Positions 13,429 to 35,482 of a DNA stretch of 64,000 nucleotides are shown here, piece by piece. Numbering within the stretch: position 1 is the first letter of the stretch; every line of letters begins with the position of its first letter. The notes beneath the pieces were generated by a model. It was not told where the DNA came from and searched no databases. It saw only the letters and a program-made list of their open reading frames with translations. This stretch comes from a virus (lineage: Duplodnaviria > Heunggongvirae > Uroviricota > Caudoviricetes): the IMG/VR virus record IMGVR_UViG_3300047320_000132, positions 3,101 to 67,100 of that record. The stretch is one strand, 5' to 3'. A program made the translations under genes and the position numbers.

Positions 13429-13467
13429 ATGCGTGATAAATGTAGTGTGGGAAAAAGGATAATTTTC

Positions 13468-13926: not shown

Positions 13927-13927
13927 G

Positions 13928-14524: not shown

Positions 14525-14969
14525 TTTCGTCTTCACTGTGGACTCTGCTGAATCCAGCATTTTCGAGTCGTCTATTGTAATCTTTGGTGTTAGCGATACG
14601 GGCACCGAGACCTAGTCCAAGCACTGCACCGAGAAACTTATTCTTGAAAAGCCGTGACTTTCCAATATTTGTCAGTCTTGATGCGTGAGTTGCAATGGAC
14701 GGATCCAAATGCGCATTTGCAGCGGTACTAGCCAAATAAGGAAGCATAGTTGCCTTCGTATAAAAATGGCCTGCCGTTCCGCCTAGCGTAGCTCCACCTA
14801 GAGCCCAAGCCGCAGTTTGAACCGGATGGATGCCTTCTGCATTTTCAAGTTTTGCAAACTCTTCCCGATTCAAATGGAGCTTATCGACACCATACCAACT
14901 CTTATCATCTGGGTGCGGAGCCATCGCATACGACTCAGCTACCTTCTCAAGATACTTGTTTTTCGACAT
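14517..14969 (-). CDS. NKYLEKVA-tagged head protein with glycine-zipper helices
   Basis: MSKNKYLEKVAE; ALGGATLGGTAG and LGAVLGLGLG. Confidence 0.7.
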   Translation of the reverse strand: MSKNKYLEKVAESYAMAPHPDDKSWYGVDKLHLNREEFAKLENAEGIHPVQTAAWALGGATLGGTAGHFYTKATMLPYLASTAANAHLDPSIATHASRLTNIGKSRLFKNKFLGAVLGLGLGARIANTKDYNRRLENAGFSRVHSEDEND

Positions 14970-15357
14970 GTTTGTTGATCGCTTTATTTAGTTTAACACC
15001 GGCGTAATCAGCAGCCAAACTTGTAGCGCCAGTCAATGCCAAAAGTTTTGCATTATGCATATGTCCTGCACCTTCCCCTATAATTTTGGGAGAGAGTTTT
15101 TGCACTCCAAAACCTGTACCTGCACCGATACCTCCGATTATTCCAGTATCAATAGCGTCGTGTTTCCAATTAGATTCCTGTTCTTGAGCAGCTTTATGTA
15201 ATGCTGCGCTAAGAAGAGTTTTATCCCCGCGAACTAATTTTGAACCTGGTGAAACAACTTTAGATGGTTTCGCAACTTTGCCAAGTCTTGCGCCGACTCC
15301 CTTGGATGCCAAATTCGGAAAAGTCATTCCTGCAATTTTTTCCAAATACTTATTCAA
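14947..15357 (-). CDS. NKYLEKIA-tagged head protein with glycine-zipper helices
   Basis: TTG start with ggag SD; GIIGGIGAGTGFG. Confidence 0.7.
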   Translation of the reverse strand: MNKYLEKIAGMTFPNLASKGVGARLGKVAKPSKVVSPGSKLVRGDKTLLSAALHKAAQEQESNWKHDAIDTGIIGGIGAGTGFGVQKLSPKIIGEGAGHMHNAKLLALTGATSLAADYAGVKLNKAINKHVEKQVS

Positions 15358-15431
15358 TTATTTTCTCCAAGAAAAAAACCCCGCCCGTAATGTTGTACAG
15401 AGCGGGGCCTTAATTTAAGTCAGACTACAGA

Positions 15432-16691
15432 TTAATAGCCGTACAGTTCGTTCGATTTAGCGTTAACCATTTCGATTGCGCTGTCGAAATCAACGCCGTT
15501 AGCGATGAGCATATCGAGAGCAGCCTTCTTTTCACGGCCAACAGCGTATGCACCAGCAGCACCGGCAGCAGCAGCGCCAGCACCCAGATGAACAGCCTTG
15601 TTGTTAGCCAGAGCCTTGAACGAGCCTTGGGTAGCTTGGGCCTTAACGCGGTTAGCGTCAAACGCTACGCCATTAGCAGTCTTCTTAGCAGCACGGCCTA
15701 CATGTTCAGCAGTCGTTGCAGCCTTACGGGCAGCACGAGTTGCTGCACCACCACCGACCGAACGTGCAGCTTCGTTAAGCATCTTTGCAGCGCCAGAAGC
15801 AGCAGCAACCTTCGTAAGCTCAACAGCTTGGTCGAAATCAAAACCAGCAGCTAGGAACGAGTCAAAAGCGGCTTGCTTGACTTGCGTTTCTTCTTCTTGT
15901 TCGAGTTCAAACGCAGCTTCTTTAACCAGGTTCACAGCGGCGTCGAAGTCGAAGCCTTGGCTAACGAGTTCAGAAACAGCTGCAGCCTTTTCTTGTTGGT
16001 CAGCATCGACCCAACCCGTAACACCACCTTGGTTAGGAGTCTGAGCAGCAACTTGTGCGCCTTCTTCCTTAGCAATGCCAGCAGCGGGGTTTTGATCAAC
16101 CGGAGCAGCACCATGAGCCATAGCATCTGAAACGATTGCATCGAAAATTTGGTTGATAGTACCACCATTACCACGACCATCCGTACCCGGTTGGTTTTGG
16201 ATAATGCTATCTTGTTCTGCTACTTGAGCAGCCAGGTCTACCTGGGTCTTGTTCGGAACACCACTGGCAATGCCATTCATGGTGTTTTGGTCACCGACTG
16301 AAGCCAGCTTCTCAAGAAGAGCTTCGGCCAGAGCCTTACCTGCGTCAGCAGCTTGTTTGTTCATAGTATCCTCTGTATTAACTTGATCAAGTTTAATGGA
16401 TGCAACTTTTTGCATTACTTCTTTAGCCAAGGCGGCACCTTTTGCAGCTGCTTCCTTAGTTTGTTCGTCGTCTTTCTTCTTGTCGTCTTTTTGTTCGACG
16501 GCATTTTCTTTCTTAGCAGCTTGGTCGGCTTTGCAAGCAGTATCTAGTTCTTCATCTGCTTTACAAACTGCCGTCTCGGCTTTTTCTTCATCTTTCTTTT
16601 CATCCTTCTCTGACTTTTCGCTGGCGGACTTAGTAAGACCGGCGCTTTTTTCAAGATCCTGGATGAGATCATCAAGACTTAGATTCATCAT
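15432..16691 (-). CDS. Major scaffolding/core protein
   Basis: Charged coiled coils, about 11 K-x-A motifs, repeated GFDFDxA(V/I) units; lies between protease and capsid genes. Confidence 0.65.
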   Translation of the reverse strand: MMNLSLDDLIQDLEKSAGLTKSASEKSEKDEKKDEEKAETAVCKADEELDTACKADQAAKKENAVEQKDDKKKDDEQTKEAAAKGAALAKEVMQKVASIKLDQVNTEDTMNKQAADAGKALAEALLEKLASVGDQNTMNGIASGVPNKTQVDLAAQVAEQDSIIQNQPGTDGRGNGGTINQIFDAIVSDAMAHGAAPVDQNPAAGIAKEEGAQVAAQTPNQGGVTGWVDADQQEKAAAVSELVSQGFDFDAAVNLVKEAAFELEQEEETQVKQAAFDSFLAAGFDFDQAVELTKVAAASGAAKMLNEAARSVGGGAATRAARKAATTAEHVGRAAKKTANGVAFDANRVKAQATQGSFKALANNKAVHLGAGAAAAGAAGAYAVGREKKAALDMLIANGVDFDSAIEMVNAKSNELYGY

Positions 16692-16753
16692 GACTAATAT
16701 CCCTTTTTGAACGAGGCCACTGGATTGTAGCCTTTTGAAAATCTTCAGTCAAT

Positions 16754-18259
16754 CTATTTATTCTGAATCAACTTTAGCATTGCCGACTTGGCTAATTTGT
16801 AAGTCAATTTGTAGTCAGAAGCAGATTTAACTAAAGGTATTTTAACACCATCTGAAAGCTTGTTCAATTCCTGCTCTTTCATTTTCTTCTCAATTACTTG
16901 AGTAATGAACCACTTTGCAGCGAGAGCAGCACCGCCGATTGCTACGATGGCATTGAACACACGCAAGAGTTCAGACTTTTGTGGAGCGTTAGCCAGATTC
17001 TGTTCTCTGAACCTTTCATAAACCGTCGGTTCGATATGATGACCATTTCCGCTGTACCCTACGTTTGTACCTTGCATATATCCATACATCGATGCTTGCT
17101 TATTCATAGCTACACGGCTTTCTACATAATCCGGCAGATACGAAGAATCTTCCATGTGTGGAAGAAGCGCATGCACAATTCCTATATTAGGTTCTGTAAT
17201 TTCACCGAAGTCACGATCAAAGTCCATCAGTGCAGAAGTACCTGATTTATTCACATAAGCAGCAGCCATAGGGCCGATGCCCTTAGCTTCGTCACCGAGG
17301 ATCTTGCGACCAATCAGTTCTGCCAGAAAACCCAATGAAGGGCTAATACCAAGATGACCCAAGGTGCTAAGAACTTCATTAAGCTTATAGTTTCTAAGAA
17401 CGTCGATAACGTCACCTTTCGGATCAGAAACTCGTGATACAAGATTATCAAAACTAGGATCAGCAGATACAACATCACCATCGACCTCTTTTAGTAATTC
17501 TGATAGCTTCTTTAACGACGCGGCTTTGTGCATCGTAATTTCAGATAGGCCAGCCATCATGGCTTCATCTACAGAACCAACAACTTCAGCTGTTGATGCA
17601 ACTTTCTGTAGAACAGAACTCGTTACGTCGGCAGGGCGGAATACGATAGAGATATCGAAGAATCTAAGCGGAGCCAGATTCAACGCCATAACCTTGCGGC
17701 CATCTGGATAAATTCTGCCAAGCTGTTCGCTCAAGTGTTCACAATACTCTTCACGAGTCTTAGCCTTGTTACTGCAAATACTGCAAACGTCGAATGGAGT
17801 ACGGCAAGCCATAGAAGTCTTAGGCCAATCACCGCTTTCGATCTTGTCGACGATGTCAGGGGCCTTGTCATTCCACAGTTCGGCAATAAGCTCAACACGA
17901 TGCATTCTATCGTTATAAACGGAATAGATAACACGCCCGATAGCAATTTCAGGGTTCTTGTTTACGTGGTTGCGGAAGATATGGGCGGGTGAAGTCTCAA
18001 AGGTATTGTGATAATCAATGAGATTCGATTCAGGGAAATAGTCTGCGTTACGGTTGGCACCATAGAATTCACCCGCGCCCATAGCGAGGATGTGCAGATA
18101 TGTCTTTCCATGAATAGGAGTGATTTTGGATGCGAATTGTTGAATACGAGAATCCGCAGCCTGTTTGATGAGACTGCCTGTAAGGTCTCTGTTGTCAAGA
18201 ATCGTAACCTGGGGTTCGTCTTGGTAAAAAGAAGAGGTATCGATCAGTTTTGTTAGCAT
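16754..18259 (-). CDS. Prohead maturation protease (HK97/assemblin fold) with C-terminal extension
   Basis: RNHVNK (His), KTSMAC (Ser), DISIVFRPAD; CSIC...C...H Zn motif; synteny. Confidence 0.75.
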   Translation of the reverse strand: MLTKLIDTSSFYQDEPQVTILDNRDLTGSLIKQAADSRIQQFASKITPIHGKTYLHILAMGAGEFYGANRNADYFPESNLIDYHNTFETSPAHIFRNHVNKNPEIAIGRVIYSVYNDRMHRVELIAELWNDKAPDIVDKIESGDWPKTSMACRTPFDVCSICSNKAKTREEYCEHLSEQLGRIYPDGRKVMALNLAPLRFFDISIVFRPADVTSSVLQKVASTAEVVGSVDEAMMAGLSEITMHKAASLKKLSELLKEVDGDVVSADPSFDNLVSRVSDPKGDVIDVLRNYKLNEVLSTLGHLGISPSLGFLAELIGRKILGDEAKGIGPMAAAYVNKSGTSALMDFDRDFGEITEPNIGIVHALLPHMEDSSYLPDYVESRVAMNKQASMYGYMQGTNVGYSGNGHHIEPTVYERFREQNLANAPQKSELLRVFNAIVAIGGAALAAKWFITQVIEKKMKEQELNKLSDGVKIPLVKSASDYKLTYKLAKSAMLKLIQNK

Positions 18260-18285
18260 ATTTATATTTTACAGGCAGTTACTAC

Positions 18286-18606
18286 TTAAATACGAATGTA
18301 TTTATTTTTGGTACCAGCAGCTTTCTCTTGTTCGGGCAACTTAACGTGAACATTAACGCTCTGTCGTTTCTTCAAAGCCTCTGCGATATCTTTCAATTGA
18401 TCTAAAGATTTACTTTCCACATCCGCCATGTGATTTCCTCGATGTTTGCTCTCTATACCATTGGCTAGATTCGCAACACCTAGCCCAAGACCGGTAGCAG
18501 ACATACCTAGACCAATCTTGGAGGTTGTTGAACTTCTCTTCCAGCCTTTAGCGAAGCTCTTTCCGAACTCACTTAGACTGGCAATTTTCTCTAGGTATTT
18601 ATTCAT
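18286..18606 (-). CDS. NKYLEKIA-tagged head protein
   Basis: MNKYLEKIAS; IGLGMSATGLGLGV. Confidence 0.7.
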   Translation of the reverse strand: MNKYLEKIASLSEFGKSFAKGWKRSSTTSKIGLGMSATGLGLGVANLANGIESKHRGNHMADVESKSLDQLKDIAEALKKRQSVNVHVKLPEQEKAAGTKNKYIRI

Positions 18607-18608
18607 GG

Positions 18609-19148
18609 TTAAACAAACGCTTTAGGATTAACCGAACCGTTGTCACGATAGCGGCCTTCAAGATCCGTAAGACTCTTAATAGTCATCAGATCGATACCGT
18701 CACCTTGAACTGCGTTCGTAAGGATAGATTGTAGCAGATTCGGATCCACTGCAACCAGCGGAGCAAATCTGTAAATCGTATCAGCATACTTTTCAACCTT
18801 AGCAGGGTTCTGATCACGAAGGAACGATGACGAAGCAACAGCATGTTGCAACGACTTAAGGAAGCGTTGGTATCTGAACTGATCCGTTACGAAACGATAA
18901 CCAATCATTGCACCGCCAACCGCACCATGAGAGACGATACCACCAATGCCCTTACCAAGTTGGCCAGCGATATTGTCTGTGAATTCACGACTGATGTCTT
19001 GCTCTGAACGTGGGTTAGCCGCTTCTTTTTCCAGAAGTGCTTCTTTTTCCATCAAAACATGAGTAATGAAGCCTGCTACGAATTGGTCAGCGAGATCTTC
19101 ATTGCCAGCGAATTTTTCAAGACCTAGCTCTTTAACTTTTTCTAACAT
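18609..19148 (-). CDS. Internal head protein
   Basis: LEKFAG, LEKEAA motifs; glycine-rich hydrophobic helix. Confidence 0.6.
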   Translation of the reverse strand: MLEKVKELGLEKFAGNEDLADQFVAGFITHVLMEKEALLEKEAANPRSEQDISREFTDNIAGQLGKGIGGIVSHGAVGGAMIGYRFVTDQFRYQRFLKSLQHAVASSSFLRDQNPAKVEKYADTIYRFAPLVAVDPNLLQSILTNAVQGDGIDLMTIKSLTDLEGRYRDNGSVNPKAFV

Positions 19149-19173
19149 TTGAATTGTCCTTTGTTTACTTTAA

Positions 19174-20274
19174 TTAATCACGTTGAAGAGCTGACCATAC
19201 GTCATTGCTTCTTCCGGTATGTGAATCTGTACCCGGGTCATACAGAGCTGCATCCATAACTGGGTTAGCTGCTTTCCATACTCCCTTCAGAGCAGAACCT
19301 GAAGTCTTGCCGACAGCCTTGGTAACTGCAACCGCCTGTGACTTTTCGCCAGCACCCATAATAGCTTGGGCATTCGTTTTAACACTTTTTATTGCTGCAT
19401 TTCCGACGGCTTTACCGGCGTCAATTGGAGTCTTTGCAACTCTGCCAGCTACGTAACCCGCCGCATAGCCAGGAGCACCAATAGTTTTGTTAACTACGTT
19501 CTTTGCACCGGCACTAACATTATTCATCGTATTAACGAATGAATTTGTTTTGATACCTTGAGTCGTTTCTGCAGCTTGCTTTTGAAGACTCGATCTTTCA
19601 CGTTGTTCACGAACCAGTTCACGAGCTTGCTTATATAGATTCGAGAAATTAGTAACGTCCTTCAGTTGGGCTTCTTTGAAAAGACCAACACCTGCGAGGT
19701 CACGATACTTTTGAACTGAGCCTGAAACAAGGACCGACAATTCTTTGAATTCCTGTTCGCTCGTTACACAAGCCAACTTATCCATCCACTTCTCATCCTT
19801 GCCAATAGCCTTAGCCGTCTTGACAAGAGTATCAGCAACAGTAATGCTTTCTATTTGTAGACGTTCAAGTGATTCTTTATTAGCGGAAGCTTCTTTTACG
19901 AAGTAAGTAATCTTTTCACCGAATTCCAGTTCACGCATTTGATATGCAGAAGCTGTCTTTTCGATACTTTTACTTTCAACGCTAATGGTTGCTGCCACTT
20001 TTTCCTGGAAGTTATCAGGAAGCGTAGCCGAAGCCATGACTTCAGCGTATTTTGCAAGTGGGAATTCTACCGTACGGTCTTCGCTCAACTGCAGTACTTT
20101 CAGATAAGCGATGTTGTTTGTTGATTCAACAGCACGCTTAACTTGTTCTTCATTAAGTTCATAAGCTGCCGCTTGTTTAGCCAAGCCAACGCTTAGTGGA
20201 ACTTTGTTATTTAGAAAATCTTCGACCGCGCTGATCGAAAGATCCCTAAGTTGTTCTGGCGAGATGTTTGCCAT
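19174..20274 (-). CDS. Internal head/core protein
   Basis: About 7 K-x-A motifs; lies in the head operon. Confidence 0.6.
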   Translation of the reverse strand: MANISPEQLRDLSISAVEDFLNNKVPLSVGLAKQAAAYELNEEQVKRAVESTNNIAYLKVLQLSEDRTVEFPLAKYAEVMASATLPDNFQEKVAATISVESKSIEKTASAYQMRELEFGEKITYFVKEASANKESLERLQIESITVADTLVKTAKAIGKDEKWMDKLACVTSEQEFKELSVLVSGSVQKYRDLAGVGLFKEAQLKDVTNFSNLYKQARELVREQRERSSLQKQAAETTQGIKTNSFVNTMNNVSAGAKNVVNKTIGAPGYAAGYVAGRVAKTPIDAGKAVGNAAIKSVKTNAQAIMGAGEKSQAVAVTKAVGKTSGSALKGVWKAANPVMDAALYDPGTDSHTGRSNDVWSALQRD

Positions 20275-20276
20275 GT

Positions 20277-20438
20277 TTATCCCTTGCGACCTTTTTTGGT
20301 CCCTTTAGTCATGTCTATTTTAGTCTTGAGACTCATGAAAGGCTTACTCTTTGGAGCCTTAAGGGGCTTCTGACCAGCTCTTACCTGAAGCTGGCCTCCT
20401 TTCTTTCTAGCAGCGATTTTCTCTAGGTATTTATTCAT
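20277..20438 (-). CDS. 53-aa highly basic NKYLEKIA-tagged peptide
   Basis: Manual translation MNKYLEKIAARKKGGQLQVRAGQKPLKAPKSKPFMSLKTKIDMTKGTKKGRKG; ATGA overlap with the upstream HNH gene; below the ORF-track cutoff. Confidence 0.75.
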   Translation of the reverse strand: MNKYLEKIAARKKGGQLQVRAGQKPLKAPKSKPFMSLKTKIDMTKGTKKGRKG

Positions 20439-20962
20439 AAAAGCTCTTCAATGAGTCTGTTCTTTTTCTGCATGTTTTCTTTTGCAGGGATAACACGTAG
20501 ATTGGTATGAACATGGAGCCCTGAAACCGTTTTACCTCTAAGCGGAACTATATGATCAACGTGGTGAGGTATGCCTGTTTTTTCACTAAGTTCTATACTC
20601 AATGCGTAAATTTCTCGTATCTTTTCAATATCTGCCCAAGGAGGGGTTCTATCCTTTATAAACTGTTTACGTCTCTTAGAGTATTCTTTAAAGTAGGCTT
20701 TATTATCATGATAATAATCTCGCCCTTTCTTCAAAACCTTCTCTTTGTTTCTATTTGCGTACCGGATTGCCCACTCACACGCTTTTGTAGGATTAGCCGT
20801 ATGAAATTTATCATTCGCAATTTTTCCGCATTCAAGACAAGTTCCCTTAGCTACATATCTTTCAGAAACATGCCCATTTTTGCAAGGCTTACCTGTGTAA
20901 TATTTAGTAAGCCCTTCCTCTTTAGCTTTCTTCCGAGTTATCAGGCTCATCTTCACTATCAT
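20435..20962 (-). CDS. Free-standing HNH endonuclease
   Basis: HHVDHIVPLRGKTVSGLHVHTNL; N-terminal YYTGKPCKNGH. Confidence 0.85.
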   Translation of the reverse strand: MIVKMSLITRKKAKEEGLTKYYTGKPCKNGHVSERYVAKGTCLECGKIANDKFHTANPTKACEWAIRYANRNKEKVLKKGRDYYHDNKAYFKEYSKRRKQFIKDRTPPWADIEKIREIYALSIELSEKTGIPHHVDHIVPLRGKTVSGLHVHTNLRVIPAKENMQKKNRLIEELL

Positions 20963-21647
20963 TTAGTTCCTGACTGACGTCTCTTACAGGTAAATTATTA
21001 AATTCAGAAATGTCAAATCCATCCAATGAAGTAAACCCGTCAAAATCGGGAATAACTTCTCTGATGGCAAGCTCAAGGTCTTTCTTAGCTGCACCTGAAT
21101 CAACTGTCCACAATTTAAGAAGTCTTGAAATATCGACACTTAATTTGACCCATTTTGTAGCTTCTTTGGATGCTTCTGCAACGTTACCGCTGAACATAGC
21201 CTCTTTACTTTTATACATGCAAGTAGTAAAGAGATCCACTAATCCATCCACTGGGGAAATTTGAATCTGTTTACCCATACGCCAAGCTATGAATTCAAGA
21301 CCCTGGCTTAGAGCCCAGAGTTTAAGGTTGGCTTCATTTTTATCACGAACATCTAGAAGCTCCATCTTACTTAATTTATCACATTCAGTTACATCGTAGA
21401 AAATAGCAGAATACATCCGAACTACTTCCACCGGAAGTTCTAGAATGTTGGAGATAGCTTCGAAATCATTGGTACATAGAAGGCTAGCTTCTACATACCC
21501 TTTTTTTAATTTCGATTCTTTAATAGGACACGCCTGTAAATAGGCGTCACGCTCAGGCCCTTCAACCCCCGAGAGAATTATATCTACAAGGGGGTCTACA
21601 TTCCGAACGTTGTTACGAATATGCAGCTCTCTCTGATTTGGTCTCAT
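20922..21647 (-). CDS. Hypothetical protein (late operon)
   Basis: Long co-oriented ORF. Confidence 0.65.
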   Translation of the reverse strand: MRPNQRELHIRNNVRNVDPLVDIILSGVEGPERDAYLQACPIKESKLKKGYVEASLLCTNDFEAISNILELPVEVVRMYSAIFYDVTECDKLSKMELLDVRDKNEANLKLWALSQGLEFIAWRMGKQIQISPVDGLVDLFTTCMYKSKEAMFSGNVAEASKEATKWVKLSVDISRLLKLWTVDSGAAKKDLELAIREVIPDFDGFTSLDGFDISEFNNLPVRDVSQELNDSEDEPDNSEES

Positions 21648-21656
21648 CGTTCATGG

Positions 21657-23612
21657 TTACTCTTTAACGGCTAATTGTTTTCCAGGACCTTCGGTGTCGA
21701 TAGAGTCAGCGGTAGCGGAGTATTCTTTAAGTTTCAGGTAATTATCACCTAGCAGACGATATACAGTCTTCAGGCCTGCAAGGAATGCATAAACCTGGTC
21801 TGCGTCGTTTGCTTCAGCAAGGCGACTAACGTGAACACGAGCCATGAACAAAGTACGGCCAAGTTTGTCAATGGCTTGTTCGATTTCCGGAAGATATTCT
21901 TCGATCAGCTCGAACATGTCAGGGGCTTGAAGCAATTCCGAGATAATGGTTGCTTCTGTTACCTGGGCGTCGTTAGTAGCCAGTGCATTCTGAATGTTAG
22001 GGATAAACTGACCATTAGGCTGATAAGCCCCGTTCATCGTAACTTCATCAGGATCAATACCAGTTTGATCCTCGTCACCATACTGAGGCATGTTACCGTC
22101 GTCTTGGGCATTCGTAAATCCAGCACGTTTAGTCATGTAAACCTTAACGAACTTGATTTCCTTAGCCTGCTTGACAAAGCTCGATGCCACTTCAGGATCG
22201 ATGCCTTCATCAACAACCAGACGTTTCATAACATTAGCTTCAGCGCCAGCACTCTTACCGTTAATAGCGAATTCAACACCATCGTAACCGATGTTCATTT
22301 CATCGCCGAGCCATTGAATGTCATGGATATGACGCTTACGACTTGCAGCATTAACGTTGACTTCCAGTTCGGAACTCAGATTCTTCTTAAGTTTGATAAC
22401 GATTGAGTTGAAAGGAATATAGATTTCCTTACGCTCGTACGTACCACAAACATTGATACTGCCTGGAACATTACGATAACCGAATAGAGTCAATGCGCCA
22501 TATCCAGAATCATATGATGAACCCTTTACTTCTACACCGTAGCTGCTCAGAGATACTCGGCTTACCGAAATCGGACCAAGGAATTCACCTGAATTTAGCA
22601 CGATGACAATTGTATCACCGCTCTCAACGTCTTTCAACATAAGGGGCGGATTGTAATCAAACATTGTTTTAAGAACGGTTCTACGATCAAGAGTTTCACC
22701 TACTGCGATAAAACCTTCATCCAGAGCGTAATCACCAGTTGTAAACAATGCCAGAGTCGAACGCGGTGCGTCGTAATCGCCACTCACACCTCTTGGGCGA
22801 GAGCCCAGAGTATACATTTTAGGAATGTATGCTTCACGAGACGTACCATTAGAAAGCATAATTTCAAAATCTCTATCTCCATCAAGATTTGTAACGTTAC
22901 GGAACGTACCTGAAGTATTGAAATTTTGCACTGCAACGGCAACACGCGCATAAGGCTGTTCGCCCGATACGTGATAACCGTCGTTCAGGATTGAGGAGAT
23001 CTGATCTTGGGTCATTGCCGGATTTGCATCCGTAACAACTGAAATAGGTACAGCATTAGTAACAGCGGCCAAGCTTTGCGGACGACTTTTCAGTACGTCG
23101 AAAATGGCCTTGAGTCCATACATTTCATCAAGGGAGTCATATACCGATTTTTCGGCAGCGATTTTCTCCATTGTTGCTTGTTTAAGATAGTCAGGCAATG
23201 CGGCCATGAACTCGGTCAGACGACTTGAGCTGGCGTAAACATGCTTGCCTGTACGCGGCGGATTAATCATGTCCGCAACGCTAGGATTACCAACGACAGT
23301 CTTAGGAATGTCAGTAGGCTTACCTTGGTCCATTTGGCTCGATGAGGTGACGAGCATGACCGTTTTCTTTGTCAGCGGGAAAAACCGCTTTTCCGAGTCA
23401 AAGAAGATAGAGTCGATAGGGTATACGTTATCGTTCTTTGAAACGACAGGGATGAAGAAGATTTCAGTACCGACTCTCAGTACGAAAACGCCGACCTGAA
23501 TACCAGTGTCATCTTGGAGTTCTTCAGAAACGTCCTTAAACGTGATAATGTAATTTCCTAGCTCCGGAACGGTTTGAAGCAGTTTTGCAAGAGCGATGTC
23601 GGAGAAATCCAT
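21657..23612 (-). CDS. Large putative virion structural/internal protein
   Basis: 651 aa with K-x-A motifs (LKQAT, EKIAA, TKRAG); TAAAATA upstream. Confidence 0.6.
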   Translation of the reverse strand: MDFSDIALAKLLQTVPELGNYIITFKDVSEELQDDTGIQVGVFVLRVGTEIFFIPVVSKNDNVYPIDSIFFDSEKRFFPLTKKTVMLVTSSSQMDQGKPTDIPKTVVGNPSVADMINPPRTGKHVYASSSRLTEFMAALPDYLKQATMEKIAAEKSVYDSLDEMYGLKAIFDVLKSRPQSLAAVTNAVPISVVTDANPAMTQDQISSILNDGYHVSGEQPYARVAVAVQNFNTSGTFRNVTNLDGDRDFEIMLSNGTSREAYIPKMYTLGSRPRGVSGDYDAPRSTLALFTTGDYALDEGFIAVGETLDRRTVLKTMFDYNPPLMLKDVESGDTIVIVLNSGEFLGPISVSRVSLSSYGVEVKGSSYDSGYGALTLFGYRNVPGSINVCGTYERKEIYIPFNSIVIKLKKNLSSELEVNVNAASRKRHIHDIQWLGDEMNIGYDGVEFAINGKSAGAEANVMKRLVVDEGIDPEVASSFVKQAKEIKFVKVYMTKRAGFTNAQDDGNMPQYGDEDQTGIDPDEVTMNGAYQPNGQFIPNIQNALATNDAQVTEATIISELLQAPDMFELIEEYLPEIEQAIDKLGRTLFMARVHVSRLAEANDADQVYAFLAGLKTVYRLLGDNYLKLKEYSATADSIDTEGPGKQLAVKE

Positions 23613-23689
23613 TTATAACAGTCCTTTGAAATTGAGCTTAATTATGCACGTATTTTAGCAGAATAAGCCATATTTAGTCTACGCTGATT

Positions 23690-24472
23690 TTAGCACCCAG
23701 GCGGATGCTGATTGTCGCCAGAAGCTATTGTAATAGCACCTGTACTTGTTGATCCTGGATTTGATACCACAACGCCACCTGATCCATTAGCCTTATTAAA
23801 GGCATCACCATAATAAATACTGGCTACATAGGTAGATGTCAAACTCCCATTGCCTCTATCTGTAGTAGCAAGTCCGATATACGCCTGAAACGTTGCTTCC
23901 ATGCGACTATTATACGTGAACTGCCCGATACTGAATTGATTTCCTGACTGTTTCACCGCTTTATACTTGGATTCCAGAACGACCAGACCAGCAAGGATCT
24001 GGTTTGAAACTGTAGCTGAGCCGTTGAACTTTACAGAAAGGCTTTCGCCTGGATTCACACACAGCACGGATACAAGGTCAGGCCTTGCTGTTTCAATAAG
24101 GCACTTACCCGTTTTCTGGGATGCGCCCTTAACCTGGTTCCAACCCATCGTTTGAAGAAGACCCCATGCTCTAAGACCTTGATCGACATTGACGGATTGT
24201 TGGCTGATACCCCTACCGATAATAGTTTGAACTGCGCTAGAGTTCATATAGTCTCTAGCACCTGACGAATTGATAACACTCAAGGCTGGACCTTGAGCAT
24301 TAACGTTGAAGTGACTTTCGTATTGGATTTGAGCCAATATCAGTTTAACGATGTCGGTCTCTTTCCCCAGTGTGTTCGCAAAATATTGGCTAAGGAGTTG
24401 AGAGATCGTAGTAGAGCAAATCTGTTTAATAGAGTTGTCTACTACTGGACCTGTAACTGCACCACTTGCCAT
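23690..24472 (-). CDS. Lytic transglycosylase/lysozyme-like (virion-associated) protein
   Basis: AQIQYESHFN (catalytic Glu) and AWGLLQTMG. Confidence 0.7.
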   Translation of the reverse strand: MASGAVTGPVVDNSIKQICSTTISQLLSQYFANTLGKETDIVKLILAQIQYESHFNVNAQGPALSVINSSGARDYMNSSAVQTIIGRGISQQSVNVDQGLRAWGLLQTMGWNQVKGASQKTGKCLIETARPDLVSVLCVNPGESLSVKFNGSATVSNQILAGLVVLESKYKAVKQSGNQFSIGQFTYNSRMEATFQAYIGLATTDRGNGSLTSTYVASIYYGDAFNKANGSGGVVVSNPGSTSTGAITIASGDNQHPPGC

Positions 24473-26310
24473 TAGTACTGTCCTCCTTCACCTTCGCCAA
24501 ATTCATTACCGATAATGTACGGAGTAATAGGCTCAGTGCTATGAAGATCAGACTCTGCACCAACTGCAGCGCTTTCACGAAGCGTATTCTTAAGACCGGA
24601 GAACGACAGTTTCGAAACCCAGTTATCGTCAAGCAATTTTGCAGTCTTAAGACCGGGAACGATAGGGATTACTTTCAGTCCGGTCGATGCTACTGGAACC
24701 TTTGTGACACCACGTTCACGCAATTCCTGGATGTGGTTACCGTCAAGCAGCGTACCTGCTGTAAGCTCATGCACGCCTTTGGCCAGAAGCTTACCTTCTG
24801 CGTTTTCGAGAGGCACGTCACCATGTGTATCAGAGAAATATTTACGAACCGTGTTTACATCAATCTTTTGACCGGGTAGGAAGCCAGTTTCACCTGGATC
24901 TACGACTTCAACGTGCTTGACCAGATTCTTTGCGATCATTTCAAAGTGACGAGGATCTAGATCTGAACCGTAAATACCACGAAGTTCATGACTCATATAA
25001 AGTCTTCCTGCTCCAAGGCCTTTAAGACCTACGAGCTTACGGGGATTGACAACGCCAGTAGAAAGCGAATCGCCTTTCAGAACCTTATCACCTACTGAAA
25101 CTTTTAGGTTTTGGATGCGCGGAACGAAATGGGACTGTTCATTAACAAATACCTGATGGTCACCAAGAGGAGTTTGCTTGATTAAAGAGACAGTTCCGTT
25201 AATACCCGAAATAGTAGCTTCGTCCTTGAAGTTTTCAGCCGGATTGCGCAGAAGATTAGAAGCCTGTTCATACGAATTGCCTTTACGAGCGCCTACCGAT
25301 GCTTTGTGCTTAGTTGCAAGCATAGACTGCGTAAGAACTTCTGACACAGATTGTGCTGCGATAACGCCGACGTTTTCGCCAATTTCAGCAGGTTTTCCAT
25401 TCCCCATAAGACCGTAGCATTTCTTGCAAACGCCTTGATGAGCTTCGCAGGTAAGAACACTACGAACCTTTATGCTCTTGGCTCCAGAGGCAACCTTTTC
25501 TTTGTAGTAAGCTTCGTCGATAAGCGTGTTAGTGCCAGCTTCATATCTACCGATAGCACCTTTTTTGTCGGATATCGGAAGAAGAATGCCATTGGTGGTT
25601 CCGCAATCATCAATAGTGATAACTTCGTGGAATACAGTTGGGGACAGTTCCTTAAATAGAGCGCCCGGTAGAGCCGTTGATAGTTGAGACAGAACCGTAG
25701 ATCCACGTCCCATGTACGACATCGCTATCAGTTCAGCTGGAGTCATACCTTGGGCAAAAGAATGCTTAATAACGAACGGTACTAGTTCGCCCTTCAAGTT
25801 AATCGACATAAGAGGCGTTGAAGTACCAGTTGCAAGCTGAGTAGGATTACCACGAGCACCCGTCTTGGCCATCTTTGCCGCAGTAGAGCCTCGTGACATA
25901 AGGTAGTCTATGTTCTGTTTTTCAATCTTCCCATTGTACTCTCCGGTTAGATTGCCAAGAGCTTCATTTTCTTCTTTTTTGGCTAGTTTCCTGGAGAAAA
26001 TCTGATCAACCTTTGTCTGAAATTCATCGATAATTGCCTGACGTTCATCAGATTCGTTGATGTAGTCAGTCAGAGGCGTGGTTGCACCAATCTCAGTAGC
26101 CTTGTTGAAGAACTTTTTACCAAGATCATTTATGGATTCGTGGGAATCAGGGCCGCCATGTTGCAATAGAAGATTCACAAGATCACTGATACCCCGTTTG
26201 TCAAGGGGTTTATATAGATCGAAGTGTTCTCTGGCTTCAGGCGTAGGCAACTCACTTTTCAGTTTGATAGCCCCAGGTGTAGTATATTTTTCAGTCATAG
26301 TGGTTGGCAA
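24472..26310 (-). CDS. rpoC: RNA polymerase beta-prime C-terminal part (bridge helix, Zn site, trigger loop)
   Basis: GARGN, SFAQGMT, DDCGT, RSVLTC...GVCKKCYG, GENVGVIAAQSVSEVLTQ. Confidence 0.9.
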   Translation of the reverse strand: MPTTMTEKYTTPGAIKLKSELPTPEAREHFDLYKPLDKRGISDLVNLLLQHGGPDSHESINDLGKKFFNKATEIGATTPLTDYINESDERQAIIDEFQTKVDQIFSRKLAKKEENEALGNLTGEYNGKIEKQNIDYLMSRGSTAAKMAKTGARGNPTQLATGTSTPLMSINLKGELVPFVIKHSFAQGMTPAELIAMSYMGRGSTVLSQLSTALPGALFKELSPTVFHEVITIDDCGTTNGILLPISDKKGAIGRYEAGTNTLIDEAYYKEKVASGAKSIKVRSVLTCEAHQGVCKKCYGLMGNGKPAEIGENVGVIAAQSVSEVLTQSMLATKHKASVGARKGNSYEQASNLLRNPAENFKDEATISGINGTVSLIKQTPLGDHQVFVNEQSHFVPRIQNLKVSVGDKVLKGDSLSTGVVNPRKLVGLKGLGAGRLYMSHELRGIYGSDLDPRHFEMIAKNLVKHVEVVDPGETGFLPGQKIDVNTVRKYFSDTHGDVPLENAEGKLLAKGVHELTAGTLLDGNHIQELRERGVTKVPVASTGLKVIPIVPGLKTAKLLDDNWVSKLSFSGLKNTLRESAAVGAESDLHSTEPITPYIIGNEFGEGEGGQY

Positions 26311-28919: not shown

Positions 28920-30188
28920 ATGTTACAACCCAATGATGAATTCCTTTTCACCCGGCAACGTCACGAAGCTGATGTAATGGGCCTTCACTACGATCTCCGA
29001 CTAGTTCATGGAGATAAGGCGTACTCCTTCGCAACGCTCAAAGACATGCCTGGTCCAGGTGAAATCATTGCAGTCTACGAACAACCTGTTCATGACAGAG
29101 CGTATGCGCTAAGCAAGAAAGTGGTTATCCCTACTGGCCAATACGGTGCAGGTGTTACTCATTTAGATTGGGTTAGAAAAGCAATCGTAGCTCCACACAG
29201 TACAGAAACCTCGCTGGTTATATTCACCAAAGATGGTCAGAAGTTCCTGCTTAAGAAATCTCCGACTAAAGAAAATGAAAAATCGTGGATTTTCAGGAAC
29301 ATTACGGGAATGGGTAAAAGTCAGAACCCTTACCTTAAGAAAATAGAAGAAGGTATGGATAAACAAGCATCGTTTATCGGCGGTGCAATCGCTACTCACT
29401 TACTTCAAAATGTAGCTACGAATGTGGCTTTGGGAAAACGTCGTGTGTCACGCTATCTGGCCAATTCGTTTGCCCAAGGCGCTCACGGTGTCGTAGATAA
29501 TAGCATCAAGGCAAGAGCGCTGCGTACTGCACTTGGCGCAACCCTGCCGGATATCTCAGTGGCTCATAAGTCGATGCATGACTTAGGTCGTGCTGTAGGT
29601 GGACTTACTGCCCATGCAACTCCTCGCCAACGCGTAGCTGTTAGGATGCTTACGCAAGGTCGCTTCAACGATCTAAAAAAATACGATTTGCATAGAGACC
29701 CTGTAGTACAAGCAGTTCATAATCATGTCAGCAAACATCTCGGTCTGCCTTCGCTTGACCATGTTATGAGTAAAGCCGATGACGTGGCTAAGTTATGGAA
29801 AGATAAAACTCATCCGTTGCTTTCCAATATTGCAACCAATATTACGAAAGGTGCAAAACCACAGGGCAAGCATTTTGTACCGGGGCATCTTACTGCCAAA
29901 CCAGGTTTGACGGGCGCAGTTGCAAGCTTTGCTATCGATCCCGCTGCGGGTAGTTTAAACACAGCCAAAAATCTTATGGCTAGTAAAAAAGTGGCGAATA
30001 ACAAGTACGGTAAGAAAGTGGTTGATATGTTGAATAATCAATTTATCAAGAAACCGATTAAAGCTGGAGTGGAATCTGAAGGTCGTATTTCACAGCTAAA
30101 AAATAAGGCGTACAAGTTAGGGGTTAACCCTCTTTCAGCTCATCTAAAAAGAACATCGTCGGCGTTAACCGATGTTCTCAAGGATTAA
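28920..30188 (+). CDS. LigD-type 3'-phosphoesterase domain fused to a basic head-protein-like domain
   Basis: QRHEA..GLHYDLRL, VHDRAY, IPTGQYGAG; linker NPYLKKIEEGMDKQAS. Confidence 0.8.
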   Translation: MLQPNDEFLFTRQRHEADVMGLHYDLRLVHGDKAYSFATLKDMPGPGEIIAVYEQPVHDRAYALSKKVVIPTGQYGAGVTHLDWVRKAIVAPHSTETSLVIFTKDGQKFLLKKSPTKENEKSWIFRNITGMGKSQNPYLKKIEEGMDKQASFIGGAIATHLLQNVATNVALGKRRVSRYLANSFAQGAHGVVDNSIKARALRTALGATLPDISVAHKSMHDLGRAVGGLTAHATPRQRVAVRMLTQGRFNDLKKYDLHRDPVVQAVHNHVSKHLGLPSLDHVMSKADDVAKLWKDKTHPLLSNIATNITKGAKPQGKHFVPGHLTAKPGLTGAVASFAIDPAAGSLNTAKNLMASKKVANNKYGKKVVDMLNNQFIKKPIKAGVESEGRISQLKNKAYKLGVNPLSAHLKRTSSALTDVLKD

Positions 30189-30319: not shown

Positions 30320-31777
30320 ATGAATAAGTATCTAGAAAAAATAGCCCGGAAGCAGAAAAGCGATCTTCGTCCAAATCAGATTGACGCACTTGAGCATCTT
30401 GAAAAAGAGAAAGGTGTTGTCCTTCATCATAGCCTTGGTAGTGGCAAGACAAAAACGTTCCTTAAAGCGGTGGAACATTACCAGAACGAAAATCCGAAGA
30501 AACGAGCATTGGTTATCGCCCCGGCGAGCCTTGTTACTAACGTTGACAAGGAATTGCTCAAGCACAAGATCAACCTTGACAAGAATAGGCTTGACGTCAT
30601 GAGCTACGAGAAGGCAGTAAACGAAGCTCATAATCTTCGCAAGAACGATTATTCGATCGTAGTTGCCGACGAGGCTCACAGACTTCGCAATACGAATACT
30701 AAACGTACCAAAGAGCTTCGTGACATTATCAGCGGAGCGGATCGACGTCTTCTAGCTACCGCTACGGGTAACTACAATAAGCTGTCTGATATTTCAGCGC
30801 TCGTTAACATCGCTGCTAATGACGATGTTCTTCCTGAAGATTCTAAGAAGATGGAAGAGCGTTACACTAAGGACGAAATTGTCAAGCCTGGGTTTAAAGA
30901 ACGGCTTCTTGGTGCTAAACCTGAAGCTGTTAAAACACTTGACCGTCGTAAGGAACTTAAAGAAGCGCTTCAGCGGTATGTGAGCTATTACGATAGCAAG
31001 GATGATCCTGAAGCCAAAGATCATTTCCCTTCCAAGACTGAAAAGAACGTGGATGTAGAAATGTCCCCGGAACAGTTGAAGTATTACAAGTTTACTGAAG
31101 GTAAGATTCCGTTCCTGCTCAGAATGAAGATTCGTCACAACCTTCCGTTGGACAAGAAAGAGAAGTCGAGTCTCAATGCTTTCTCGACAGGCGTGAGACA
31201 GGTTTCCAACGGCTACAAGCACCTCAAGGCTGATGGCAAGGGTGAGTACTCACCTAAGATCCAAAAGGCCGTAGCGAGCCTCCAGGACGGTCTGAAGACG
31301 GATAAGAACTTCAAGGCTCTCGTATATTCAAACTATCTTGATGCGGGTCTGAAGGATTACTCTAAACGACTGCAGGAACTGAAAATTGACCATGCTATTT
31401 ACGACGGCTCCCTTTCACGTAAAGAAAAGGATGAATTGGTTAAACAGTACAACTCTGGTAAGAAGAAAATTTTGTTGATTTCTTCATCTGGTTCAGAAGG
31501 ACTTGACAGTAAAGGCACCAAGCGTGTACAAATTCTTGAGCCTCACTTTAACAAGAGCAAAATCAATCAAGTAGTTGGCCGTGCGGTTCGGTTCGGAAGC
31601 CATGACCATTTACCCAAAGAAGAACGCAAAGTAGAAGTTGAGCATTTTCACAGCGTACATCCTAAGCCGCTTTGGGGTAAGACGCCGTACAGTATCGACA
31701 AGTATCTGTCAGAGAATTCTGATACGAAGCAGGACCTGTTTGACGAAGTTAAAGATTTGATGAAGAAAGATGACTAA
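30320..31777 (+). CDS. SNF2-family helicase/ATPase, NKYLEKIA-tagged
   Basis: HSLGSGKT, DEAH, SGSEGLD, QVVGRAVRFGSH. Confidence 0.9.
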   Translation: MNKYLEKIARKQKSDLRPNQIDALEHLEKEKGVVLHHSLGSGKTKTFLKAVEHYQNENPKKRALVIAPASLVTNVDKELLKHKINLDKNRLDVMSYEKAVNEAHNLRKNDYSIVVADEAHRLRNTNTKRTKELRDIISGADRRLLATATGNYNKLSDISALVNIAANDDVLPEDSKKMEERYTKDEIVKPGFKERLLGAKPEAVKTLDRRKELKEALQRYVSYYDSKDDPEAKDHFPSKTEKNVDVEMSPEQLKYYKFTEGKIPFLLRMKIRHNLPLDKKEKSSLNAFSTGVRQVSNGYKHLKADGKGEYSPKIQKAVASLQDGLKTDKNFKALVYSNYLDAGLKDYSKRLQELKIDHAIYDGSLSRKEKDELVKQYNSGKKKILLISSSGSEGLDSKGTKRVQILEPHFNKSKINQVVGRAVRFGSHDHLPKEERKVEVEHFHSVHPKPLWGKTPYSIDKYLSENSDTKQDLFDEVKDLMKKDD

Positions 31778-31988
31778 TAAATACCTAACCAAAATTGCTT
31801 CTGACCTAGCTACGGCAGAGAAGAACGAAAAAGACGAAAACGATGATGTAAACAAGTATTCGGAAGAATTGAAGAAAGCCAGAAATCCGAAACTCGTCGC
31901 AGCGTTGAAGTTTGCGTTACCAGAAGAAAAACAACACAGGGCTAAATTTGAGGCTGCTGTTGCAGCTATCAAACAAAGAGATCACTGA
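31770..31988 (+). CDS. Half-ferritin (encapsulated-ferritin EncFtn-like), NKYLTKIA-tagged
   Basis: E-x6-Y-x9-P-x-L-x-A-x-L-x5-EEKQH matches EncFtn ferroxidase spacing without gaps. Confidence 0.7.
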   Translation: MTNKYLTKIASDLATAEKNEKDENDDVNKYSEELKKARNPKLVAALKFALPEEKQHRAKFEAAVAAIKQRDH

Positions 31989-33349
31989 TGAACAAGTACC
32001 TAGAAAAAGTAGCAACCGAACTTAAGGAACCAGCTAGCCCTGAGGGGCTTGGCTTTGACTTGTCTAAGGGCGATGAAAAGGAACTGTATAAATGGCTTAC
32101 AGCGGTGACTCTTTTTTCTAGACCTATTCAGCGTTCTGTAGCAGGTATGGCTGCAAAACATATGGCAGAACAGGGGTTCCACTCACCTGAAGCTGTTGAA
32201 TCAGCTGGTTGGGAAAATCTTCGTGACAACCTGGTCAAAGGACATTATGGCCGATTTGATGAATCCACAGCTACGACGATGCTTGCACAAGCAAGGCATC
32301 TAAAAGAGAAATACGGAACGATTGGTAATCTTATCGATAGCCGTACGCCTGAAGAGATTCGTGCTGAAATTCAAACGTTCCGTGGAATCGGTCCACTTGG
32401 AAGTCAGCTATTTGTCGAAGGTGTCAATCCGTATCTGGGTCAAATTCAAAAGCAAGCCTCTGCTGAAAACTATCAACGTCACAAATACGTTGAAGGTGAT
32501 TGGACTAAGCTTGAGCATCCAGTTGCATCAAAGAAATGGGACGGCGCTCACTTTATTTTGACAGTTCAGCCTGACGCTTCTCTTACGTTTCACTCACGTA
32601 GAGAGAGCGTTAAAGGCGGATACCCGGAGCGTTCTTCACAATTGCCTCACCTTGCAAAGCAGATGCCTGACTATATCGGTAATCAATTTGCAGTAGAACT
32701 TGTGCATACCGGACTTGCTAAATCCGAAACGGAATCACATCCGACGGTTTCAGGTATTCTGAATTCGCTTGCACCTCGTGCAATTGCAACTCAAGCTGAG
32801 AAGGGTCCAGTTAGAGCCGTGCTTATCGATGTCAAGAATCCCGATCTTGCTACATACAAGGATAAGATTGAGTACATCAAGAAATTCGAAAAGGATTTTG
32901 GAAATAACGAAGTGATGTTTGCACCTCACCTTGAACATGGCGTTGAGAATATCAACAAGTACCTCGACAAGATTAAAGGGGATAAAGGTGAAGGCTTGAT
33001 TGTTGCTGACTACGAACAACCAGAAACAGAATCAGTACGATACAAAGTTAAAAACTATGTGACATATAATCTGAGAGCACAGGGTCAGCAGCAGGAAATC
33101 GACATTAAGGGAAATCCTAAAGATAGTATGGGAGCTTTGTATCTATACGATGCTTCAGGAAAAATGGTTGGAAAGGTTGGAACGGGGTTTGATAGAGAAA
33201 CACGAATCAATGCACGCAAGCATCCAGAGATGTTTGATGGAAAATTGATCCAGGTTAGAGCGTATCCGCCAAGCGTACCGGGAGGCCAGATAAGATTCCC
33301 GGTCTATAACGGATTTGCTGATGGGGAAATTGACCGAGTCCATCTTTGA
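31988..33349 (+). CDS. lig: HhH-domain protein fused to ATP-dependent DNA ligase, NKYLEKVA-tagged
   Basis: HhH-like FRGIGPLG and YGRFDE; ligase KWDG, GEGLIV, YKVK, GKVGTGF. Confidence 0.88.
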   Translation: MNKYLEKVATELKEPASPEGLGFDLSKGDEKELYKWLTAVTLFSRPIQRSVAGMAAKHMAEQGFHSPEAVESAGWENLRDNLVKGHYGRFDESTATTMLAQARHLKEKYGTIGNLIDSRTPEEIRAEIQTFRGIGPLGSQLFVEGVNPYLGQIQKQASAENYQRHKYVEGDWTKLEHPVASKKWDGAHFILTVQPDASLTFHSRRESVKGGYPERSSQLPHLAKQMPDYIGNQFAVELVHTGLAKSETESHPTVSGILNSLAPRAIATQAEKGPVRAVLIDVKNPDLATYKDKIEYIKKFEKDFGNNEVMFAPHLEHGVENINKYLDKIKGDKGEGLIVADYEQPETESVRYKVKNYVTYNLRAQGQQQEIDIKGNPKDSMGALYLYDASGKMVGKVGTGFDRETRINARKHPEMFDGKLIQVRAYPPSVPGGQIRFPVYNGFADGEIDRVHL

Positions 33350-34215: not shown

Positions 34216-34320
34216 CTCAGGCAGCGGTTCATCAAGGCGGATTCGGCCCCGAGTCCCGCTTCCGCTGCCCGAGGAGGTTGAGGAGTACGTCCCCCTCCAG
34301 GACGTATCTCCTCTTTTTTT
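34216..34320 (+). ncRNA. Candidate structured RNA: long GC-rich hairpin plus terminator with CCUCC loop
   Basis: ggcagcgg (34220-27) pairs with ccgctgcc (34262-69) around an inner stem; terminator gaggag-tacgtcc/ggacgta-ctcctc-T7. Confidence 0.4.
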
Positions 34321-35482
34321 AGCCTTCTATTTTGATAGGCGTTCTATCGTTGATTTCACCACGTTCAAGCGCAGCCAAAACTTCTGCTTCAGAAGCGAAT
34401 GTTCTAGGCGATTGATCCATATCTGGCTCAGTCAAAGCCATAGATCCAATAACTGCTTCGTGACCCGGTGCAACCATCGAAGCACCCTGACCTTTACGGT
34501 AATCGTAAATGTGTTGTTGTGGCAGAAGTTTCTGCTTGGCTTCTTCAACAGCTTCCGGCGTCATCGGAACGTGCAAAGTCAAAGCATCCCCGTCAAAGTC
34601 GCCTGCATACATCGGCAAGTGCAATGGATTAATACCAAGCGTCTTACCTTCGATAGGCACAGGATAGTGAGCAGTAATGTTCGTTCTCATCAGAGTCGGA
34701 GCACGGTTAAGAATGACCGGAACTTGTTTGATCATTTTATTAAAGCTATTCGTTGCACCAACATCACGATTTGCTACTGCCTTCCTTGCGGCCATCATGT
34801 CGTAGCCGTTACGAACCAGATCCCGGATTATGTGAAATTCATACATTGTCCACAGCATGTCTTTCGGAGCAGCAACTTCGTTAAAGCCGAGATTAGGCTC
34901 AGCATAAATCGTTGCACGGCCAGAGAAGTCTTGCTTCTTCTTCAGTAGCTTGTTATGGAAGAAACCACCTTTAGGCCCGGTATCGCCAGCAATTTGCTGG
35001 ATATATCCTTTCAACTCCTTACCACGAGCGCCACCTGATACTGCGTCACCAAGACCGAACACAGCCTTAAGACCGTTGTAAGCGTCTTTACGTTCATTGA
35101 TAAGCATGTCGTGAGGCAATATATCTACGTTGCCTTTCAAGCCGTTATTAACAAGCATGTGGTCACGATAAAGCGTATTAACGTCAGCAAATTCGATACG
35201 GTTACCACCCATTGGGATGCTTGGACGTACAAGCGGCGGAGTAACAGGAACATTGTGAATGACGTATGCAGTTTCAGGACGCAGATCCACTTTCTGCAAA
35301 CCTGCGAGGTACTTGATCTTTTTTACGATTGTGTCTTTTTTAGATGGCGACTTGGTTTCTTTAATTTCTGCTTTAAGGGCTTTAATCTGTGCATCTACAT
35401 CGATAGTAGAAAGCATTTGGTGCAAAGCATCGCCAGACACCGCAAGGCTATCTGTATCAATTGTGTCATTAGGTTTATTCAT
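34319..35482 (-). CDS. rpoC: RNA polymerase beta-prime middle part with catalytic DxDxD
   Basis: PVTPPLVRP, KQDFSGRATI, LNRAPTL, YAGDFDGD. Confidence 0.92.
   Translation of the reverse strand: MNKPNDTIDTDSLAVSGDALHQMLSTIDVDAQIKALKAEIKETKSPSKKDTIVKKIKYLAGLQKVDLRPETAYVIHNVPVTPPLVRPSIPMGGNRIEFADVNTLYRDHMLVNNGLKGNVDILPHDMLINERKDAYNGLKAVFGLGDAVSGGARGKELKGYIQQIAGDTGPKGGFFHNKLLKKKQDFSGRATIYAEPNLGFNEVAAPKDMLWTMYEFHIIRDLVRNGYDMMAARKAVANRDVGATNSFNKMIKQVPVILNRAPTLMRTNITAHYPVPIEGKTLGINPLHLPMYAGDFDGDALTLHVPMTPEAVEEAKQKLLPQQHIYDYRKGQGASMVAPGHEAVIGSMALTEPDMDQSPRTFASEAEVLAALERGEINDRTPIKIEG

Follow-up and report, generated by a model that had tools for sequence, protein, structure and literature searches.

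We analysed a 64,000-nucleotide stretch of DNA from an uncultured tailed phage (hereafter the window), which comprises bases 3101-67100 of the IMG/VR record IMGVR_UViG_3300047320_000132 and has a G+C content of 44.6%. The full record is 131.1 kb long and estimated to be 72% complete, for a phage of ~180 kb. One short gene in the window, lying between the genes for an SNF2-family helicase and an ATP-dependent DNA ligase, encodes a small protein with an N-terminal peptide tag followed by a two-helix half-ferritin domain. Profile comparisons and structural models give good support to the view that this protein is a divergent yet genuine member of the EncFtn-like superfamily with its metal site intact. 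We read it, with a probability of roughly 55%, as an EncFtn-like half-ferritin that is delivered by its tag into the phage head, where it would oxidise Fe(II) near the phage DNA.

As a single sequence, the half-ferritin matched Pfam Rubrerythrin at E 5.7e-4 and gave no PHROG match, and a four-sequence profile found only three matches in the PDB, all of them ferritin-like and weak (E 0.045-1.4). A word-indexed search returned three close homologues, and an exhaustive HMMER search returned 31 cluster representatives at E ≤ 1e-3. The profile of a 34-member domain alignment (A2) matched 3k6c at E 1.1e-11 and 5da5, the R. rubrum EncFtn, at E 3.8e-9, followed by 7s8t (2e-6), 5n5f (3.4e-5) and 7oe2 (6.1e-5), further matches which include M. 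xanthus EncC and EncB and H. ochraceum EncFtn. Only at E 0.16-1.3 did classical bacterioferritin, rubrerythrin-type proteins and Dps appear, and the A2 matches listed to E about 0.1 were ferritin-like or designed di-metal helical-bundle proteins. The best-matching entry, 3k6c, is NE0167, which served as the molecular-replacement model for solving EncFtn (PMC5012862). The Pfam family EncFtn-like was matched by 25 of the 34 members at E ≤ 0.1 (best E 2.3e-12), and two full-length relatives, P0013 (31.7 bits) and P0026 (28.0 bits), exceeded its 27-bit cut-off. A protein language-model atlas, used for leads only, pointed to small clusters of rubrerythrin-like proteins (0.91-0.93) and, at rank 23, to EncFtn-like.

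The first-pass annotation of this DNA had aligned residues 23-56 of the half-ferritin without gaps to a stretch of R. rubrum EncFtn that it quoted. The quoted stretch agrees letter for letter with 5da5, and HMMER confirmed the alignment, pairing 5da5 residues 32-67 with family-profile residues 22-57 without gaps; by hand count, 11 of the 34 positions of the quoted peptide are identical. The ferroxidase residues are kept, as had been claimed: E23, Y30, E53 and H56 align with EncFtn E32, Y39, E62 and H65, described as the residues of the di-iron ferroxidase centre and the tyrosine next to it (PMC5012862), and D22 and D25 occupy the positions of EncFtn E31 and E34. In the 34-member alignment the sole invariant columns are one Ala and these four site residues, which places the match to EncFtn beyond chance, and the spacing E-x6-Y-x(20-24)-E-x2-H is kept in all 35 family representatives (P0001-P0035). 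A separate observation concerns P0034, an untagged ferritin-like protein of 173 residues with a two-repeat four-helix bundle and two E...ExxH halves, which ties the phage half-domain family to full-length rubrerythrin-like proteins (E 3.4e-4).

The first monomer model of AlphaFold 2 (AF2), based on a four-sequence alignment, was poor (pLDDT 60). With a deeper alignment AF2 gave a confident helix-turn-helix (pLDDT 95.8), with helices at domain residues 2-28 and 32-63. The first-pass annotation had made its proposal depend on a ferritin-like fold, and the fold model indeed ranks EncFtn-type structures first: in a Foldseek search against 350,542 PDB chains the top matches were NE0167, EncB, EncFtn and EncC, with TMq values of 0.70-0.84 and E-values of only 0.3-1, which are weak because the query has only 64 residues. 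For two copies of the domain with two iron ions, the predicted complex reached an ipSAE of 0.87, compared with 0.00 for the best of three controls. In the calibration of this dimer score, 20 of 30 proteins solved as pairs of one chain reached the mark, as did one of 23 solved as single chains. The dimer runs had a contact agreement of at least 92% and a partner pLDDT of at least 92, and the predicted symmetric interface holds domain residues 15, 22, 44, 45 and 48, which correspond to E23, Y30, E52, E53 and H56. Because EncFtn dimers are already in the PDB, the dimer score indicates likeness, maybe model memory, and is not independent proof. In the predicted arrangement, two half-ferritin copies would lie antiparallel and form a four-helix bundle, in which E23, E53 and H56 of each chain would contribute to one common di-iron site of the ferroxidase type, with Y30 beside it. 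We infer a dimer or higher assembly and metal chemistry. The homology to EncFtn-type half-ferritins that the annotation had put forward is well supported by the family profile, the fold model and the predicted dimer.

The genomic setting of the gene is a DNA-repair operon. The ATG of the half-ferritin overlaps the stop codon of the helicase gene upstream and its TGA overlaps the ATG of the ligase gene downstream, and the three genes are therefore translationally coupled. Related loci were collected with a 12-member subset of the family alignment, and in every related phage contig recovered the half-ferritin sits in the same repair module. In L005, L006 and L012, one protein combines a LigD 3'-phosphoesterase domain, the tag and the half-ferritin; a ligase gene comes next in each of them, with an SNF2 helicase gene following as well in L006 and L012. 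In L011, the tag, the half-ferritin and the SNF2 helicase form a single protein of 572 residues, and L007 has a separate tagged half-ferritin near phosphoesterase and helicase genes. Fusions to the phosphoesterase (PE) were found in 6 of 31 representatives, with Pfam LigD_N above its cut-off in five, and P0013 combines the tag and half-ferritin with the domain that follows the phosphoesterase in the window (domain X). Many other family members are stand-alone proteins of 63-75 residues. The fusions to a LigD phosphoesterase or an SNF2 helicase suggest that the half-ferritin helps to limit or to repair breaks in DNA. Strand breaks made by hydroxyl radicals leave 3'-phosphate or 3'-phosphoglycolate ends, which have to be removed before ligation, and LigD phosphoesterase domains take off 3'-phosphates. 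A ferroxidase that lowers Fe(II), a cleaner of 3' ends and a ligase would together make a coherent kit against oxidative breaks. The recurrent fusions to the phosphoesterase and the linkage to ligase and helicase genes thus lend indirect support to the suggestion of the first-pass annotation that the protein may limit Fenton damage to packaged DNA, and they do so better than the argument given there.

Some features of this gene neighbourhood and family stand apart from these results. The ligase of the window has an extra tagged N-terminal domain of ~150 residues, which the ligases of L005, L006 and L012 do not have, and a second, internal tag-like string in its catalytic region (NKYLDKIK, residues 323-330, positions 32954-32977) that may be a coincidence. 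P0021 adds to its phosphoesterase, tag and half-ferritin a C-terminal acyl-carrier-protein-like domain (residues about 205-291), and in P0009, P0011 and P0030 a recurring module, I-x-I-K-P-S-H-x-G-x-L-H...F-A-x-N-A-x-K-W-x-H, lies beside the half-ferritin. Among 50,697 deposited phage genomes we found no close DNA or protein match to the half-ferritin. In the deposited phages P0021 was matched only through its acyl-carrier-protein part, to acpP genes of several jumbo phages, and no homologue of the family member P0012 was detected in them.

The tag, M(x)NKYL(E/T)K(I/V)A, starts ten open reading frames (ORFs), and a variant is internal to the PE protein. All copies lie at 9.5-33.3 kb of the window, in either the head module or the repair operon, and none was found elsewhere in the 131 kb. 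The first-pass annotation rightly noted that the homologue bears a phage tag and that the genome has an HK97-fold capsid. Six of the carriers are encoded within the head module; they are small, basic (pI 8.8-11) and rich in Gly/Ala, and they show the profile of internal or ejection proteins. The tag is also carried by the helicase, the half-ferritin and the ligase. The codons of the tag copies vary synonymously at wobble positions and the DNA upstream of them is unrelated, and therefore selection acts on the tag peptide. For the same reason a DNA-level repeat or a common translation start was rejected as an explanation of the tag. A clamp- or hub-binding peptide was also considered and was ranked low, as six of the carriers are head-module proteins. 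Across the family, the tag is present in 28 of 35 representatives, N-terminal, internal or C-terminal to the domain; its usual place is 20 residues ahead of the first Glu, but some copies lie far upstream or on the C-terminal side of the domain, and these varied positions indicate that it acts as a portable module.

The end of the tag, together with the residue that follows it, fits a motif that resembles a protease site. We counted the pattern [LIMF]-x-K-x-A-[SAG] in the ORFs and in shuffled sequences. In the 20 head-module ORFs there were 27 copies, compared with 1.9 ± 1.3 in the shuffles (maximum 6), an enrichment of about 14-fold; the corresponding values were 3 observed and 0.5 expected in the repair operon, and 11 observed and 6.6 expected in the other 166 ORFs of the contig. 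The same was seen in the head regions of two cultured relatives, Salmonella phage Arash (20 observed, 3.0 expected) and Vibrio phage D69 (26 observed, 2.1 expected), whose capsid proteins are 55% and 50% identical, respectively, to that of the window phage. The copies concentrate in the protease-like, scaffold-like and neighbouring proteins; the genes of the scaffold-like and protease-like proteins together span positions 15432-18259. In the repair operon they fall at domain boundaries, one after the internal tag of the PE protein and one at ligase residue 153, which is where the shorter ligases of related phages begin. The motif is enriched roughly 7- to 14-fold over shuffles in the head-module proteins of all three phages (in the window, positions 9500-23700 on the minus strand), and it is probably what the head protease of this whole clade recognises for cleavage. 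The simplest reading would be that the motif reflects a conserved head-protease specificity to which the NKYL prefix was added as an address. Cleavage at the motif would convert the half-ferritin into a mature protein of 62 residues (S11-H72), and the head protease may split the two parts of the ligase at IQKQA↓S. The coordinates of all features are collected in Table 1.

Table 1. Positions in the window of the half-ferritin gene and its parts, the repair operon, the head module and the RNA polymerase pieces
Feature	Position	Strand	Remarks
Tagged half-ferritin gene	31770-31988	+	72 residues plus stop; real ORF, coupled to both neighbours
Tag NKYLTKIA, residues 3-10	31776-31799	+	L6-T-K-I-A-S11 fits Φ-x-K-x-A-(S/A/G)
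Two-helix half-ferritin domain, residues 11-72	31800-31985	+	Family profile, fold model, dimer prediction
Metal-site codons	E23 31836-31838; Y30 31857-31859; E53 31926-31928; H56 31935-31937	+	
PE protein	28920-30188	+	LigD-type 3'-phosphoesterase domain, internal tag variant NPYLKKIE, motif MDKQA↓S, domain X
SNF2-family helicase	30320-31777	+	N-terminal tag; orthologue of Arash Gp217
ATP-dependent DNA ligase	31988-33349	+	N-terminal tag, extra N-terminal domain, IQKQA↓S at the residue 153 boundary
Head module	9562-20438	-	Six small basic tagged proteins, major capsid protein, protease-like protein
Six small tagged head proteins	9562-9834; 13468-13926; 14517-14969; 14947-15357; 18286-18606; 20277-20438	-	
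Major capsid protein	12005-12898	-	Ordinary HK97-type phage major head protein
Protease-like protein	16754-18259	-	
RNA polymerase beta-prime-like subunit, two pieces	24472-26298; 34319-35482	-	Flank the region

The virions of Arash have been analysed using LC-MS/MS (PMC10585845), which allowed a comparison with proteins of the repair operon. Gp217 of Arash is 39% identical to the tagged helicase over 97% of its length, and purified virions yielded 38 unique peptides and 1148 spectra of it, a level similar to that of the major capsid protein (PMC10585845). Gp100, a weak homologue (E 1.7e-4) of domain X, which follows the tag in the PE protein, is a virion protein of Arash with 471 spectra (PMC10585845). 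No homologue of the ligase was found in Arash or D69. A side observation concerns the RNA polymerase beta-prime-like subunit, which is encoded in two pieces on either side of the region; beta and beta-prime are among the most abundant proteins of Arash virions (PMC10585845), and by analogy the clade probably injects its own multisubunit RNA polymerase.

Beyond the homology, site residues, fold, linkage and fusions, which are computational findings, we infer packaging, cleavage and a physiological role as follows. The tag would most likely address proteins to the assembling head; the head protease would then cut it after K-x-A, and the mature half-ferritin would stay inside the capsid. It would share packaging, and probably ejection, with the tagged 3'-phosphoesterase, SNF2 helicase and DNA ligase. 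By binding and oxidising Fe(II) near the phage DNA it could lower the number of oxidative strand breaks, and the partner enzymes could clean 3' ends and seal the breaks that still form. It is reasonable to suppose that the tag loads proteins into the head, because six tagged basic proteins are encoded in the head module, the motif lies inside the tag, the tag resembles the capsid targeting sequence (CTS) of phage T4, and the Arash orthologue of the helicase is found in virions. A capsid-cargo role of the half-ferritin is plausible, and we lean towards it. A more far-reaching version, in which the phage head is partly encapsulin-like, with the tagged half-ferritin perhaps forming rings under the vertices and oxidising iron, and with a kit for limiting and repairing breaks loaded and injected with the DNA, appears doubtful.

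Several observations weigh against delivery of an iron-oxidising half-ferritin into the head. The window protein alone stays under the Pfam cut-offs, both for EncFtn-like (PF22277; 13.3 bits, E 0.075, cut-off 27) and for Rubrerythrin (20.7 bits, cut-off 22.8). Since the 'virion' list of Arash includes 116 of about 270 proteins, presence in it is weak evidence; moreover, searches of the cultured relatives Arash and D69 found neither the tag nor the half-ferritin, so that the proteomics come from such an untagged phage. The RNA polymerase subunits, abundant in Arash virions, are untagged in the window phage, and therefore the tag, should it bring proteins into the particle at all, is not the sole way in. 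EncFtn by itself does not store iron, and a DNA-filled head has no evident place for the oxidised iron. The protein might be a genuine di-metal half-ferritin that stays unpackaged and works alongside the phosphoesterase, helicase and ligase inside the infected cell, the tag docking on a common hub or sorting proteins in some other way. The operon linkage and the fusions tie the half-ferritin to DNA enzymes and not to capsid genes, the ligase is untagged in L005, L006 and L012, and Arash packages its helicase orthologue without such a tag. However, a hub for DNA enzymes would not explain why six tagged small basic proteins are encoded inside the head module, and the tag contains the motif that is ~14-fold enriched over shuffles in head proteins only. 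We regard an unpackaged role as unlikely.

Another explanation keeps the metal site and changes its purpose: the domain would mainly be a metal-dependent oligomerisation or anchoring module for its partners, maybe under the capsid vertices, and iron oxidation would have no physiological role. The assembly of EncFtn is metal-dependent and its H65A variant stays monomeric (PMC5012862), the EncFtn decamer fits the five-fold axis of an HK97-fold shell (PMC5012862), and the fusion partners are very different from one another (PE, SNF2, domain X and others). Yet all four ferroxidase-site residues are strictly invariant, including Y30, which is no metal ligand, so that their conservation suggests catalysis and not binding alone; the many stand-alone members also speak against an anchor for partners, and we hold such a role to be improbable. 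It is far less probable still that the ferritin likeness is a chance similarity of a charged helical hairpin in an ORF of unrelated function. This would fit a single sequence that lies under every curated cut-off, the Foldseek E-values of 0.3-1 and the poor first monomer model, but the family profile reaches E-values of 1e-11 to 4e-9 with EncFtn-type chains and the invariant columns coincide exactly with the site residues. The reading we prefer remains a tag-delivered half-ferritin that oxidises Fe(II) in the head.

What is new here is the recognition of an EncFtn-type protein that bears the tag and of its fusion with enzymes of DNA repair, and we found no paper on the combination. Full-text literature searches found no paper describing a phage-encoded EncFtn-like protein, none on a LigD phosphoesterase in virions and none with the tag string. 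The HK97 fold is common to encapsulins and the capsids of tailed phages, and the origin of one from the other is a matter of debate. It was proposed in 2026 that procapsids might co-assemble cargo-related proteins and perform chemistry (PMC13669383), and the half-ferritin is a specific candidate for this proposal, as a viral protein that is homologous to the most common type of encapsulin cargo and has a putative viral head-loading tag. If the more far-reaching, encapsulin-like reading were true, a viral HK97-fold shell would here contain a living example of the enzymatic counterpart of encapsulin cargo, in line with that proposal. The gene also suggests that some phages may pre-load their heads with enzymes that limit and repair DNA breaks, which would bear on the longevity of virions in environments containing iron or peroxide and on what phages inject besides DNA. 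A tag that loads proteins would also offer a practical handle for bringing foreign proteins into these capsids.

Among known systems, the closest is EncFtn itself (R. rubrum Rru_A0973, PDB 5DA5; N. europaea NE0167, PDB 3K6C; PF22277). Both are two-helix half-ferritins with E, Y and E-x-x-H in register, and the symmetric antiparallel dimer of EncFtn with its site at the interface is predicted for the phage protein as well. The phage protein ends at helix 2 and has no third helix (EncFtn helix a3). It also has no C-terminal encapsulin localisation peptide and carries the N-terminal phage tag in its place, and its gene belongs to a DNA-repair operon, in relatives often being fused to a LigD phosphoesterase or an SNF2 helicase. 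A search of the 131-kb contig for the encapsulin shell (Linocin_M18, PF04454) gave no match, and control genomes were matched in the same search. With neither a localisation peptide nor a shell gene in the contig, the half-ferritin is not a classical (Family 1) encapsulin cargo. The evolutionary bridge between phage heads and encapsulins that the first-pass annotation had raised would stay conjectural with a domain of 60 residues. The EncB and EncC proteins of M. xanthus (PDB 7S5K, 7S5C, 7S8T) share the minimal two-helix length, with 64-68 residues resolved, and are among the best structural matches of the model (TMq 0.81-0.84 for EncB and 0.73 for EncC); in the PDB, EncB entries with 65-68 residues contain 10 chains apiece. 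These proteins are non-viral and are loaded into a cellular T=3 encapsulin through encapsulin-type targeting peptides. Dps and other DNA-protecting ferritin-like proteins resemble the phage protein in the proposed logic, with a ferroxidase near DNA suppressing Fenton chemistry, but Dps forms a dodecamer of full four-helix bundles that stores iron, and its similarity to the phage family is marginal (E about 1).

For the tag, the best comparison is with the internal proteins IPI, IPII and IPIII of phage T4, whose CTS guides proteins that are unrelated to one another to the scaffold core before being cut off (PMC9026906). Both the CTS and the phage tag are ten-residue N-terminal peptides common to otherwise unrelated proteins. 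The CTS of IPII and IPIII, read from AF158101, is MKTYQEFIAE, and when it is set against MNKYLEKIAx five of the ten positions are identical (M1, Y4, E6, I8 and A9). The putative cut motif is Φ-x-K-x-A in the phage, as compared with L/I-x-E in T4. Unlike the T4 CTS, the phage tag also occurs internally and C-terminally in fusions, and unlike the internal proteins of T4, the tagged phage proteins, known here from their sequences, include DNA-repair enzymes and a ferritin-like protein.

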